Below, piece by piece: positions 23,051 through 59,661 of a stretch of DNA of 64,000 bases. Within the stretch, counting starts at the first letter, position 1; the number at the start of each line of letters is the position of its first letter. The stretch lies in NCBI RefSeq assembly GCF_003334305.1, contig NZ_QOWS01000013.1, one strand, 5' to 3'. The notes beneath the pieces were generated by a model, which was given only the letters and a program-made list of their open reading frames with translations, was not told the origin of the DNA and searched no databases. This stretch comes from Escherichia coli (GTDB taxonomy: Bacteria; Pseudomonadota; Gammaproteobacteria; Enterobacterales; Enterobacteriaceae). A program made the translations under genes and the position numbers.

Positions 23051-23170
23051 AATCTCGCGCTAACAACCTGGAATCGAGCCGTCATACTACGGCGCAACGC
23101 CCTATAAAGTAAACGATGACCCTTCGGGAACTTCAGGGTAAAATGACTATCAAAATGTGAATTGTAGCTG

Positions 23171-23203
23171 ACCTGGGACTTGTACCCGGGTCGGTATTTT
23201 TTT
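23171..23203 (+). terminator. Terminator/attenuator hairpin in the greA leader (source of GraL short transcripts)
   Basis: Hairpin ACCTGGGACTTGTACCCGGGT followed by T7, about 95 nt upstream of the greA ATG. Confidence 0.5.
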
Positions 23204-33798: not shown

Positions 33799-33919
33799 CT
33801 TTCCCTTAGAGTCCTTTTTCAAATATACTGTGAAGACTTCGGCCTTCGTAGTGGGATTTGAAAAAATCCTTCTGGAAAGTGCTCCAGACCGCAGTTGCGG
33901 TTATAGGGTTCAGTTATAT

Positions 33920-33946
33920 AAAGCCCCGATTTATCGGGGTTTTTTG
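33920..33946 (+). terminator. Leader terminator/attenuator hairpin between metY and rimP
   Basis: Hairpin AGCCCCGATTTATCGGGGT followed by T6. Confidence 0.65.
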
Positions 33947-33967
33947 TTATCTGACTACAGAATAACT

Positions 33968-33987
33968 GGGCTTTAAGCCCTTTTTTT
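33968..33987 (+). terminator. Second hairpin with T tract immediately upstream of rimP
   Basis: GGGCTTTAAGCCC followed by T7; a tandem arrangement with the preceding hairpin. Confidence 0.45.
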
Positions 33988-38679: not shown

Positions 38680-38758
38680 GTTCCATGCGGGATAAGGCGT
38701 TTATGCCGCATCCGGCATGGATTGCCTGATGTGACGCTGGCGCGTCTTATCAGGCCAA
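38680..38758. repeat. REP/BIME-like palindromic elements in the infB-rbfA spacer
   Basis: GCCTGATGTGACGCTGGCGCGTCTTATCAGGCC and CGGGATAAGGCGTTTATGCCGCATCCGGC, both typical REP palindromes. Confidence 0.6.
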
Positions 38759-40230: not shown

Positions 40231-40596
<366 letters not shown>

Positions 40597-40611: not shown

Positions 40612-40640
40612 GAAAAGGGGGCCTGAGTGGCCCCTTTTTT
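40612..40640 (+). terminator. rpsO rho-independent terminator
   Basis: Hairpin AAAAGGGGGCCTGAGTGGCCCC followed by T6. Confidence 0.75.
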
Positions 40641-40650
40641 CAAGCTGACG

Positions 40651-40824
40651 GCAGCAATTCACTGGAAACTAATGTATTGTTGCTATGAATGATCTTCCGT
40701 TGCAGAGGTTCGCGCGGCTAATGAGAGGCTTTACCCACATAGAGCTGGGTTAGGGTTGTCATTAGTCGCGAGGATGCGCAGAAGATCGGGTATTAACACC
40801 AGTGCCGTAAGGTACTGTCTAAGA
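40651..40824 (-). ncRNA. sraG: Possible SraG (PsrO) sRNA antisense in the rpsO-pnp spacer
   Basis: Placed from remembered K-12 position only; I cannot confirm the ends from sequence. Confidence 0.3.
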
Positions 40825-55152: not shown

Positions 55153-55728
55153 CTATTTAATAAACGTAAACGCTGTGGTTACCCGCTTTACGCCGCTCAC
55201 CCGGCTGGCAATATCTGCCGCCGCTTTCGCTTCACGTTCAGTCACCAGCCCCATCAGGAACACTTCACCGTTTTCGGTGGTCACTTTCACGTTGGACGAT
55301 TTCACCAGGTCGCTGGTTAAGAGCTGCGAACGCACTTTGGTGGTGATCCACGTATCGTTAGATGCTTCGCCCAGACCAATCGGCTGGCCCTGACGAATCT
55401 CGTTATACACTTCGTTGGCACCGTCTACGCCCATAGCAATCTGTTTGGCGCGAGCCGAAAGTTCAGCGTTTGGTGACTGCCCAACCAGCAGCACTTTGCC
55501 CTGATACGCCGTGACATTAATACGGGTTTCTTTCTTAATCTGTTCGTCTTTCGACAATGCGCTGTTCACGCGCACTTCCAGGGTACCATCGTCCACCTGG
55601 GTGCCGACACTGCGTGGGTCAGTTGCGGCTTTGGTACCCACAGCAGCGGTACCCACTACGGCAGCGGCAACACAACCTTGCAACAGCAGCGCGGAAATAA
55701 GGACTGCGATTGGCGATAATGCCTTCAT
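55153..55728 (-). CDS. dolP: Dual BON-domain outer-membrane lipoprotein DolP (YraP), 191 aa
   Basis: Lipobox LLLQGC and two BON domains. Confidence 0.93.
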   Translation of the reverse strand: MKALSPIAVLISALLLQGCVAAAVVGTAAVGTKAATDPRSVGTQVDDGTLEVRVNSALSKDEQIKKETRINVTAYQGKVLLVGQSPNAELSARAKQIAMGVDGANEVYNEIRQGQPIGLGEASNDTWITTKVRSQLLTSDLVKSSNVKVTTENGEVFLMGLVTEREAKAAADIASRVSGVKRVTTAFTFIK

Positions 55729-55737
55729 GTATTCTCC

Positions 55738-56328
55738 TTAATCATCCTGGTGAGGGAAAAGCGTGTTATCGATCAGATCGCACAGGCAATTTACCGTCAG
55801 CATATGCATTTCCTGAATGCGAGCACTACGATGCGAAGGAATGCGGATCTCCACATCCTGTGGCCCTAACAAACCTGCAAGCTCGCCGCCGTCATAGCCG
55901 GTCAATGCCACAATGGTCATATCACGCGTAACGGCGGCTTCAACTGCTTTAACAATATCGCGGCTGTTGCCACGGGTGGAAATGGCTAACAATACATCTC
56001 CCGCATGACCCAGCGCCCGCACCTGTTTTGCATACACTTCATCATGTAAGCGATCGTTGGCAATCGCCGTTAAGACAACATTATCAGTATTTAGTGCAAT
56101 GGCAGGTAAGCTGGGCCGCTCCGTTTCGAAACGGTTGATCATGCTGGCAGCAAAATGCTGTGCATTGGCAGCGGAAGTTCCATTACCACAACAGAGGATT
56201 TTGTTGCCATTGAGCAGAGACTGAACCAGCGTCATGGCTGCACGGGAGATGGCATCCGGAAGCGCCTCTGCCGCCGCAATTTGAGTTTGAATGCTTTCAG
56301 TGAAGCAAGCTTTAATTCTTTCTTGCAC
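55738..56328 (-). CDS. diaA: DnaA initiator-associating protein DiaA, 196 aa
   Basis: SIS domain translation [17 protein letters not shown]. Confidence 0.94.
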
Positions 56329-56347
56329 GCTAATCCTTAAACCTTAA

Positions 56348-56743
56348 TTATGAGTGGTCATTAAAGGCATCCTTAATCCACTCAACCTCATTCCCGGTGA
56401 AGGCTACCACATCGAACCGGCAATCCACAGTATCAAAACTCCCATTATGACGCGCGAGCCACAAGCGGGCAGTCTGTAATAATTTGTGTTGTTTGCTGCG
56501 GGTCACACTGGCTGCCGCGCCGCCATAAAGCGCAGAGCGGCGATAGCGTACCTCGACAAAAACGGTGGTCCGGCCTTCACGCATTATCAGATCGATCTCG
56601 CCGCCACGCTCGTTCACGTTAGCGGCGACAAATCGCAGTCCTTTGCCTTCCAGCCAGCGACGCGCTTGTACTTCCCACGCATCGCCGGTCTGTTTGGTGG
56701 TTAACTGGCGGGGACTACCTGACCTTGTTGGTACTGTAGCCAT
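56348..56743 (-). CDS. yraN: UPF0102 endonuclease-like protein YraN, 131 aa
   Basis: Canonical length and position; start overlaps the lpoA 3' end. Confidence 0.88.
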
Positions 56744-58737
56744 GATAACTTCCTGTTAATCACGCAATCCGGGTTTGCCGTCAGGCTTCCGGTATTACCG
56801 TTGATTTCAAAACCCTGAACCTGGCGCATTTGTGAGAAATGATTTGCCAGCGACCAGGCATCGACGCCCATCGCATACATGCGAGCCAGTGAATAATCGT
56901 TATTCACCGCGCTGAGTGCCTGCTGCATTAACGGTAGATTACCGCCTGCCAGCATCGGGATTTCGCTGTACTGCAAGCCTTCCATCTCCAGTCGGAAATC
57001 CGGGCCAGCGGTCCCTTGCGCACTGCGGGAGCTGGCGTACAGCGTTGCACCGCTCTGGCTACCGTTACGCATGGCGATCATCGGTTTGATAAAAGCGATT
57101 TCACCCGGCGTTGCCACAATGTACACCGCATCGACACGACCGCCATTATTGGTGAACTGGTCATCGGTTGGCGTGGTTTGCAGCGTTGGATTGTTGGTCG
57201 TCATGCCGGAGTCGGTTGTCGCTCTGGGAGTAATCGGGCTACCCGTTAAAGCAATACCAGAACCGCCGTTAACACCCGCGCGTAATTCGCTGGTGGAACC
57301 AAATTTTTGTTGCAGAACGGTGCCGCCGCCTAGTTTCTGCCACTCTTGCGCAAACGCATTGGCTACGCGATCGCCCAATGAACTGCGTGGGATCAGCACC
57401 AGCGGCGCTTGTTTACCCTGGTCACGAATATGACGCGCTGCATCGCGCGCTTCGTCTTCCGGTGAAAGCGCGAAGTAACAAATATTGACGCGGTTTTCGA
57501 TATTCTCCGGCTGGTTCAGTGCCAGCACGTTCAGCGGGGTGTTGCTCTTAAGCAACTCTTCAACGTTATTTTTCAGCAACGGACCAACCACAATACTCGC
57601 GCCATCCTGCTGAACCTGGCTTAAGATCTGGCTAAGTGGTTGTGATGAGGTATCGTAGATTTTCAGTTCTGCGGATGGATTCGCTGGCGCGCTTACCGCT
57701 GTGGTGGTTGCTGCCGGGGTGCTTACAGGCGCTGGCTGTGCCGCAGGCTGTTCACCGGTCAGATCGCTAACCGAGGCTTGTGCCGGGCTGGCAACGCCAT
57801 CCGCAGTTTGCGGCTGAGGTTGTTCAGCTACGTCTGCGGCAGGTGCGGCAGCTACCTGAGCCGCCACTGGCTGAGTGCCGATATTTTTCGCCGCTTCAAA
57901 GCCTTGCTGAATAGTGCGACCAAATACCGCTGCCTGGCCATTCAGCGGCAACAGCAGGGCGATTTTGTTGGTCGAGGCTGGTTTAAACGCTTTTACGTTA
58001 ACCAACTGCGTTGGCAGCATTTTCGCGCCCGGATTGTTCGGATAACGTTTTTGCCAGTCGGCGATCCCGGCTTTCATCATGTCGGGATCGTTACGGTTAT
58101 CAAACCAGACGCGCTGCAGATCCAGCCAGCCTTGCAGAATATTTTCGTCGGCGTTGATCACCAGCGTATTCGCCTGTTCCTGAGTCATGGAGGAGAGCGC
58201 CTGCCAGGTGGCATCAATATTCTGCTGTTTTTCTTTCGCGCCGAGCAGCGGTTCCTGAGCAATTAACGCGCGCAGTAAATCAATGGAAGGACGCCCCTGG
58301 CTGGCATCGATTTTTGCCTGCCAGTAACGCGCTTGCTGGTTTTGTTCTAAATCGGCAGGTGTGATTTTCGCCAGCAAGTTTTGCGCGCCAGCAAAATCTT
58401 TCTGCGCCAGTTTAATCTCTACCGCCAGCAGTGTTTTCTCGCGACGCTGAGAATCGTTCAGTTCTTGCGGTAGTTGGTTAAACAACTCAACCGCCTGCCC
58501 GGTTTTACCTTCTTTCACCAGTGCACGAATGGCGAGTAATTGCCAGTTGATCCTGGTATCATCAGAGCTTTGCTGCATCTGCTGAAGATAAAAGGCAGAA
58601 TCAGCCTGCGCCGTGCCCTGCATATAAGCAGTGGACTGATCGGGAGTATGGGTGCCACAACCGGCGAAAATCAGGGCTGCCAGAACAACAGGCAGACAAC
58701 GCGCGGCTTTCAAACGAGAAAATGTTGAGGGTACCAT
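56701..58737 (-). CDS. lpoA: Penicillin-binding protein activator lipoprotein LpoA, 678 aa
   Basis: Lipobox LIFAGCG, N-terminal TPR-like region and C-terminal periplasmic-binding-protein-like domain. Confidence 0.94.
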
Positions 58738-58800: not shown

Positions 58801-59661
58801 ATGAAACAACACCAATCGGCGGATAATTCTCAGGGCCAGCTTTACATTGTACCGACGCCAATCGGCAATCTGGCGGATATCACCCAGCGTGCGTTAGAGG
58901 TATTACAGGCCGTTGATCTGATTGCCGCCGAGGATACTCGTCACACCGGTTTATTGCTGCAACATTTTGGGATTAATGCCCGGTTGTTTGCGCTGCACGA
59001 CCATAACGAACAACAAAAAGCCGAAACGCTGCTGGCGAAGCTGCAAGAAGGGCAGAACATTGCGCTGGTTTCCGATGCCGGAACGCCGCTAATTAACGAT
59101 CCTGGCTACCATCTGGTGCGTACCTGCCGTGAAGCGGGGATCCGCGTGGTGCCGCTACCCGGGCCGTGTGCTGCTATCACTGCGTTAAGCGCAGCGGGTT
59201 TACCCTCTGACCGTTTCTGTTACGAAGGCTTTTTACCTGCCAAATCAAAAGGCCGCCGTGATGCGCTAAAAGCCATTGAAGCGGAGCCGCGCACGCTGAT
59301 TTTTTATGAATCTACCCACCGTCTGTTAGATAGCCTGGAAGATATCGTTGCGGTATTAGGCGAATCCCGCTACGTGGTTCTGGCGCGTGAGCTGACCAAA
59401 ACCTGGGAAACCATTCACGGCGCGCCCGTTGGCGAGCTGCTGGCGTGGGTAAAGGAAGATGAAAACCGTCGCAAAGGCGAAATGGTGCTGATTGTCGAAG
59501 GTCATAAAGCACAGGAAGAAGACTTACCCGCCGATGCCCTGCGCACGCTGGCGCTGCTACAGGCAGAACTGCCGCTGAAAAAAGCGGCGGCGCTGGCCGC
59601 AGAAATTCACGGCGTGAAGAAAAATGCGCTGTATAAGTATGCGCTGGAGCAGCAGGGGTAA
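58801..59661 (+). CDS. rsmI: 16S rRNA C1402 2'-O-methyltransferase RsmI (YraL), 286 aa
   Basis: Tetrapyrrole-methylase-like fold with N-terminal [15 protein letters not shown]. Confidence 0.94.

Follow-up and report, generated by a model that had tools for sequence, protein, structure and literature searches.

A conserved 43-nt overlap between lpoA and yraN in Escherichia coli and related bacteria, with a probable internal ribosome-binding site for yraN

Gene arrangement at the lpoA/yraN junction

The window, by which we mean the whole 64,000-nt stretch of E. coli DNA analysed here, carries lpoA and yraN as same-strand neighbours in a cluster that continues with diaA and ends with dolP. LpoA is an outer-membrane lipoprotein that activates PBP1A. 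The features referred to below are the following.

58737..56701, minus strand: lpoA coding sequence, 678 aa, PBP1A activator, with its TAA stop codon at 56703..56701 (open reading frame list, RefSeq and K-12 annotation)
56743..56348, minus strand: yraN coding sequence, 131 aa, YraN/UPF0102 PD-(D/E)XK nuclease family (open reading frame list and RefSeq)
56701..56743, minus strand: lpoA/yraN overlap, 43 nt, same strand
56743..56741, minus strand: yraN start codon ATG, the sole canonical start between the upstream in-frame TAA and codon 43
56749..56754, minus strand: Shine-Dalgarno-like AGGAAG inside lpoA, made up of its Arg-AGG and Lys-AAG codons and separated from the ATG by 5 A/U-rich nucleotides (UUAUC)
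56731..56757, minus strand: block of low synonymous variation, lpoA codons -18 to -10, covering the Shine-Dalgarno (SD) motif, spacer, start and yraN codons 2-4/5
56328..55738, minus strand: diaA, 19 nt past the yraN stop (+19 also in the supplement of Huber et al. 2023)
55728..55153, minus strand: dolP (yraP), 9 nt past diaA, final gene of the lpoA-yraN-diaA-dolP cluster
58801-59661, plus strand: rsmI, divergent from lpoA
1475-1582, 23081-23202, 33887-33987, 38686-38756, 40269-40383 and 40613-40784: Rfam elements elsewhere in the window

The sequence-only reading of this DNA had reported a 43-nt same-strand overlap between the lpoA 3' end and the yraN start, which proves exact to the base. 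The same overlap follows from a RefSeq record that is 100% identical over a 601-nt query (lpoA 1164-3200, yraN 3158-3553) and from the K-12 MG1655 annotation (3293400-3295436 for lpoA and 3295394-3295789 for yraN). The open reading frame coordinates also bear out its placing of the yraN start within the final 14 codons of lpoA, since the ATG begins at the third base of the 14th-from-last sense codon (TCA). The overlap accordingly comprises one base of that codon, the last 13 lpoA sense codons and the stop (1 + 13x3 + 3 = 43 nt), with the ATG starting 42 nt before the last stop base; in the yraN frame the same stretch holds codons 1-14 and one base of codon 15. Its length is of the 3n+1 phase class, to which the frequent overlaps of 4 nt and 1 nt also belong. 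Read in the lpoA frame, the minus-strand RNA is GUG AUU AAC AGG AAG UUA UCA UGG CUA CAG UAC CAA CAA GGU CAG GUA GUC CCC GCC AGU UAA, where the A of UCA and the UG of UGG together make the yraN AUG.

The assignment of lpoA is supported by RefSeq, which places the gene at the identical locus, and by K-12 b3147 in the same position. The LpoA protein of the window matched no NCBIfam profile; PF04348 (LppC) is recorded on the LpoA orthologue of one related locus (L082). YraN scores above the curated cut-offs of its family profiles, reaching 200.2 bits against TIGR00252 (cut-off 69.05, residues 10-131) and 144.9 bits against NF009150 (cut-off 81), and PF02021 is on record for a 99%-identical protein (P0001), placing it in the YraN/UPF0102 family. 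The gene order of the cluster is described in PMC7806268, together with sigma-E promoters directly upstream of dolP.

Within the species, the 601-nt junction query (56300-56900) has a match of 95-100% identity in all but one of the 5426 complete E. coli genomes (5425). The lpoA/yraN region is missing from one of the 5426 genomes, and a second copy of the junction lies on one plasmid record of the E. coli collection. The Rfam matches in the rest of the window (ArcZ, greA leader, rimP leader, naRNA4, S15 leader, SraG and two tRNAs) are those expected for E. coli.

Conservation of the overlap in orthologous loci

When species-representative genomes were scanned for the YraN protein, at least 80 loci were obtained, and one further locus (L082) was added through a 64%-identical homologue. 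Among the matches listed, the overlap measures exactly 43 nt in all 33 enterobacterial species other than E. coli, whose YraN proteins are 54-92% identical to the query. This clade sample consists of E. albertii, 11 Citrobacter, 4 Enterobacter, 5 Kluyvera, Pseudenterobacter, Huaxiibacter, Lelliottia, Superficieibacter, Atlantibacter, Siccibacter, Erwinia persicina, Acerihabitans arboris, two MAG or other genomes, and L082. Conservation of the overlap, which the sequence-only reading had proposed as a check, is thus found across Enterobacteriaceae, Erwinia and Acerihabitans among the matches listed. The invariant length can be explained by double coding, because any insertion or deletion breaks one of the two frames.

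Outside this clade the spacing varies. Among the matches listed, 24 gamma- and betaproteobacterial loci have an LpoA-like gene upstream of yraN, and their spacing extends from 62 nt of overlap to a gap of 46 nt; a 4-nt overlap occurs in 5 of the 24, and -1 overlaps and short gaps are also present. In Morganella psychrotolerans, lpoA and yraN are separated by a 78-nt spacer with its own SD sequence, and YraN starts at the equivalent of about residue 14 of the E. coli protein. The sequence-only reading had named downstream yraN starts in orthologues as evidence that would speak against it. Such starts are absent from the clade among the matches listed and present outside it, in Morganella and other lineages, which shows that the 43-nt overlap is lineage-specific and not that the E. 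coli start is wrong.

The annotated yraN start

The yraN frame of E. coli is closed by a TAA (56758..56756) four codons ahead of the ATG. After the ATG, no canonical start follows until a GTG at codon 43, within the conserved nuclease core, which leaves the annotated ATG as the sole usable start. The first CTG is codon 31. The conserved YraN core starts at about residue 15-20, so a downstream start would cut into it. Alignments with the family profiles (TIGR00252, NF009150), with PDB entry 3FOV and with distant homologues likewise begin only at about residue 10-20. In the 33 enterobacterial species among the matches listed, there is no canonical in-frame start between codons 2 and 22.

These observations bear on the possibility that the overlap is an annotation artefact, with the true yraN start lying downstream of the lpoA stop and the two genes not overlapping at all. 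Such a reading would agree with the rarity of long annotated overlaps, as more than 80% of overlapping pairs share less than 30 bp according to PMC12548453, with the position of the first ~13 YraN residues outside the conserved family core, and with the shorter Morganella protein. It requires, however, a start that the sequence does not offer. No ATG, GTG or TTG occurs in frame between codons 2 and 43 in E. coli, and both codon 43 and the CTG at codon 31 lie inside the conserved core. Together with the missing starts in the 33 clade species and a conserved SD motif at the correct distance from the annotated ATG, this rules out a downstream start before codon 43 in E. coli and before codon 22 in those species, making an annotation artefact very improbable.

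The start position itself is occupied by ATG in 28 of the 33 enterobacterial sequences among the matches listed, by GTG in 3 and by TTG in 2. This alternation is weak evidence for a start, because the variants are synonymous third-position forms of an lpoA Ser codon and three of the four TCN forms yield a start codon. In a look for experimental start-site or abundance data, yraN was not found in the TRAINSPOTTER and INRI-seq supplements.

A probable internal ribosome-binding site

The AGGAAG motif upstream of the yraN ATG pairs with the 16S 3' end at a calculated energy of about -4.4 kcal/mol, which corresponds to a moderate SD. Its conservation was assessed by tabulating lpoA codon usage per column over the last 70-130 codons of 34 sequences. 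Codons -18 to -14 are nearly invariant, with AAC in 34/34, AGG in 34/34, AAG in 33/34, TTA in 32/34 and TCA in 29/31. Codons in the neighbouring columns are free to vary, with Arg encoded by CGC, CGT or CGG, Leu mostly by CTG, and three to four codons in use at four-fold sites; within E. coli lpoA, AGG accounts for only 2 of 28 Arg codons. The mean codon entropy of columns -18 to -14 is 0.19 versus 1.0 for the background, a lower value than in any other of the 97 five-column windows within the terminal 130 codons. When five background columns were drawn at random 100,000 times, a single draw was equally low, giving a permutation p of ~1e-5 that is optimistic, since the species are related and their independence is overstated; the relevant control is provided by the lpoA codons on either side, taken from these genomes. 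The zone of low entropy extends from about -20 to -10, taking in the SD, spacer and start together with the first 4 yraN codons, and the remainder of the overlap is back at background entropy (0.95).

A motif placed 5-9 nt upstream of a start and conserved beyond what lpoA coding needs is what a functional internal ribosome-binding site (RBS) should look like, and both properties are found here. The synonymous-site pattern of lpoA codons -18 to -14 therefore points to a conserved internal Shine-Dalgarno AGGAAG, followed by an A/U-rich spacer and the start codon. Among the matches listed, this putative SD is kept across Enterobacteriaceae, Erwinia and Acerihabitans, in line with the internal SD sequence that the sequence-only reading had suggested looking for. 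A second SD-like stretch, AAGGUCAGG, lies within the overlap (56718-56726, minus strand; -5.0 kcal/mol with the 16S 3' end). It is probably incidental, because no in-frame start follows it.

Two RBS alleles cover 5424 of the 5426 complete E. coli genomes, both keeping the ATG and the 43-nt overlap. The allele of the window, AGGAAG, is present in 3916 genomes, while AGGAAC is found in 1508 genomes of the K-12 lineage, including MG1655 (locus L085:2889; window position 56749, minus strand). This G-to-C change in the RBS is also a Lys-to-Asn change in LpoA (..INRK.. to ..INRN..); the LpoA end in K-12 is ..VVPVS, versus ..VVPAS in the window. Since the whole K-12 lineage has AGGAAC, the sixth base of the SD is dispensable.

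Conservation at synonymous sites could in principle have other causes, and the block in lpoA might instead represent an internal promoter for yraN-diaA, a structured RNA or a frameshift site for an LpoA-YraN fusion. A small hairpin (UAAC/GUUA plus extensions) does fold in E. coli and displays AGGAA in its loop. The alifold consensus reaches only -2.6 kcal/mol, however, and the hairpin shows no covariation (0 pairs), an explicit 8-pair helix containing no pair that is changed on both sides. A conserved RNA hairpin around the RBS is hence unsupported, and the predicted unpaired fraction of the RBS amounts to 0.27-0.48 across species. A promoter scan found no sigma-70-like promoter in the conserved block, and Rfam gave no family at 55-59 kb of the window.

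The idea of a fusion draws on two database 'YraN' proteins with N-terminal extensions, P0004 (160 aa) and P0006 (155 aa), which join an LppC segment to YraN, P0004 also matching LppC (PF04348). Their clusters have one or two members each, which fits frameshift errors or over-long start calls, and it is implausible that a secreted lipoprotein would be fused to a cytoplasmic nuclease. Inspection of the overlap in the lpoA frame revealed no X XXY YYZ slippery heptamer. In both proteins, a frameshift or a start called too far upstream has probably attached the LpoA C-terminus to YraN, and neither speaks for a natural fusion. A programmed frameshift was rejected as a candidate for these reasons, the heptamer being missing and the fused proteins being near-singletons, and we regard any function of the block other than ribosome binding as extremely improbable.

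Origin and evolution of the overlap

The distribution of substitutions within the overlap shows which of the two frames is constrained. Non-majority bases at lpoA codon positions 1, 2 and 3 number 30/15/111; the stretch changes in the manner of lpoA coding sequence. From this pattern, YraN residues 6-14 look like a weakly constrained passenger tail. Pairwise identities describe the same picture, with 85% for the last 13 LpoA residues, 53% for YraN residues 6-14 and 83% for YraN residues 2-5. The 13-14 extra N-terminal residues of YraN would then form a tail whose sequence is dictated by the conserved LpoA C-terminus. This overlap-encoded tail distinguishes the E. coli protein from shorter family members, which lack it.

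The comparison with Morganella psychrotolerans hints at how the overlap arose. LpoA is homologous to its very end in that species, which argues that lpoA has not been lengthened. More likely, the spacer disappeared and yraN came to start within lpoA. A same-direction RsmI-YraN COG pair is frequent across 1,695 genomes (median -4, n=195), as given in the supplement of PMC10666635. rsmI and yraN may already have been linked before lpoA was inserted between the two.

Translation of yraN

Taken as a whole, the locus is very probably a genuine, evolutionarily fixed long same-strand overlap, explained by an independent internal RBS, operon compaction and a passenger tail. The geometry implies that yraN shares one mRNA with lpoA, and yraN would accordingly be carried on the lpoA transcript. 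On this transcript, yraN would be translated from its own RBS in the lpoA 3' end, composed of AGGAAG (the rare AGG plus AAG), the 5-nt A/U-rich spacer and the ATG. Initiation would occur chiefly by fresh binding of ribosomes at an accessible site; a ribosome terminating on lpoA, 40 nt downstream, should leave the RBS uncovered. Ribosomes finishing lpoA, or the traffic they create, may add to or modulate yraN initiation. The conserved SD in a weakly structured region favours independent initiation and argues that ribosomes can start at yraN by themselves.

PMC5828445 describes a yraN plasmid clone that includes just 40 bp ahead of the annotated start among the clones that complemented mutants almost completely or partially. 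Independent expression of yraN is therefore plausible, with the reservation that complementation from pUC19 is also compatible with read-through from lacZ-alpha.

The main alternative is strict coupling, whereby YraN would come mainly from ribosomes that terminate at the lpoA stop and return some 40 nt to the yraN ATG, or whose passage is required to unfold the site. LpoA output would then hold YraN output at a small, constant fraction of itself, and the pair would resemble the coat-lysis genes of the RNA phages fr (-38) and MS2 (-50). Coupling over these two distances, with scanning to the nearest start, is documented in the review PMC12548453. The yraN ATG is the only start near the lpoA stop, the -43 geometry is frozen in 33 species among the matches listed, and the pair is tightly spaced in every sampled lineage among those matches (62-nt overlap to 46-nt gap). 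Huber et al. 2023 (PMC10666635) further give a median spacing of -4 for the LpoA-YraN COG pair (262 pairs), with quartiles of -26 and +7, and the spread seen among the 24 loci agrees with this.

Several observations nevertheless speak against strict coupling. At -43, the distance lies outside the spacings typical of termination-reinitiation (-4, -1, up to about +6), and reinitiation in E. coli drops steeply as stop and start move apart, being nearly abolished at distances of ~20 nt in three native gene pairs, according to PMC10666635. An SD under synonymous-site constraint matches the requirement of a site that initiates independently, a conserved occluding hairpin was not found, and the invariance of the overlap length is accounted for by double coding alone. 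Strict coupling is on balance unlikely. The sequence-only reading, which suggested coupled expression of the two genes, is borne out in part: the position of the start and the conservation it asked about are confirmed, while coupling in the strict sense is the unlikely element.

The lpoA/yraN pair can be compared with several known systems. Pairs with short overlaps (ATGA/TGATG) are likewise co-directional and presumably share one mRNA, and the LpoA-like/YraN pair itself uses -4 or -1 in other lineages. lpoA/yraN differs from them in its distance of -43 and in that its products are not subunits of one complex ('CMPLX not' in PMC10666635). With the coat-lysis pairs of fr and MS2, it shares the spacing range of 38-50 nt. 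As described in PMC12548453, lysis expression is coupled to coat translation in these phages, by scanning from the coat stop in fr and by RNA unfolding in MS2. Coupling of the phage type would call for a start that is sequestered, or too weak to function unless the upstream gene is translated; yraN instead has a conserved SD in a weakly structured context (consensus -2.6 kcal/mol, unpaired fraction 0.27-0.48), and a dependence on lpoA translation is hypothetical here.

The overlap agrees with ordinary unidirectional overlaps as catalogued by Fonseca et al. 2013 (PMC3887535) and Huber et al. 2023 (PMC10666635): both genes share one orientation, the second starts within the first, and the length belongs to the 3n+1 class. 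It is longer than most of them, PMC12548453 placing more than 80% below 30 bp; about 60% of overlaps measure 4 or 1 nt, with long overlaps of the 3n+1 phase class being rarer. Unlike ordinary overlaps, it is fixed at one length throughout a family-level clade among the matches listed. The supplement of Huber et al. 2023 (PMC10666635) lists E. coli lpoA/yraN at -43, so the overlap, an ordinary feature, is already catalogued.

Function of YraN

The sequence-only reading had called YraN an endonuclease-like protein of unknown role, a description that is outdated. According to a preprint (bioRxiv 10.1101/2024.02.06.579203), Legionella, Acinetobacter and Vibrio depend on YraN for natural transformation. 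The preprint describes YraN as a PD-(D/E)XK ssDNA endonuclease that has co-evolved and acts with the ComM helicase, processing the D-loop. The YraN proteins of the preprint are those of Legionella, Acinetobacter and Vibrio, to which E. coli YraN is linked through family profiles, so that a role as ComM partner in natural transformation is presumptive for the E. coli protein.

The E. coli protein is homologous to PDB 3FOV. The active-site signature of PD-(D/E)XK nucleases comprises an acidic residue in beta-2 and E-x-K in beta-3. Judged from its sequence, the putative motif of the E. coli protein consists of G-E49-I-D51 and V-E63-V-R65, in which the acidic residues are present but R and not K occupies the third position. 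The R is also present in most of the proteobacterial relatives compared, and the 3FOV alignment sets EVR opposite EVK.

As a cytoplasmic DNA nuclease partnering ComM, YraN would be unrelated in function to LpoA. The overlap would then reflect operon compaction rather than a need for matched stoichiometry. A literature search for papers treating yraM and yraN together found none. The biological importance of the arrangement is small; its interest lies in a long-overlap start that comparative genomics alone can validate, via synonymous-site constraint in the upstream gene. Given the proposed function as ComM partner, studies of YraN in E. coli need the correct start and RBS, the K-12 RBS allele being the variant AGGAAC.

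Consequences for yraN mutants

The shared sequence has practical consequences for deletion strains. Judging by the coordinates, a clean start-to-stop deletion of yraN, beginning directly behind the ATG, would also remove the conserved last 13 residues of LpoA (56704-56742) and may be polar on diaA and dolP. EcoGene 3.0 counts 468 Keio strains in which the deletion primers also took away a short 3' piece of the neighbouring gene ('adjacent-gene double deletions'). In a synthetic-lethal screen with Lpp+21, both lpoA and yraN were hits, and the authors set yraN aside as a technical artefact. We infer that this hit could be accounted for more simply by the overlap or by polarity on dolP. Heat sensitivity of a yraN deletion mutant is reported in PMC5828445. 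With the last 13 LpoA residues lost on yraN deletion, the envelope phenotypes of such mutants (Lpp+21 lethality, heat sensitivity) may be lpoA or dolP effects.

A more speculative proposal, by analogy with the phage coat-lysis pairs, is that the -43 arrangement acts as a metering device for YraN. Back-scanning or ribosome traffic could tie a very low YraN output to LpoA translation. If so, envelope growth would set a proportional upper limit on how much of a potentially dangerous DNA nuclease is made. Taken jointly with the attribution of the yraN-deletion envelope phenotypes to lpoA or dolP, this proposal is a long shot.
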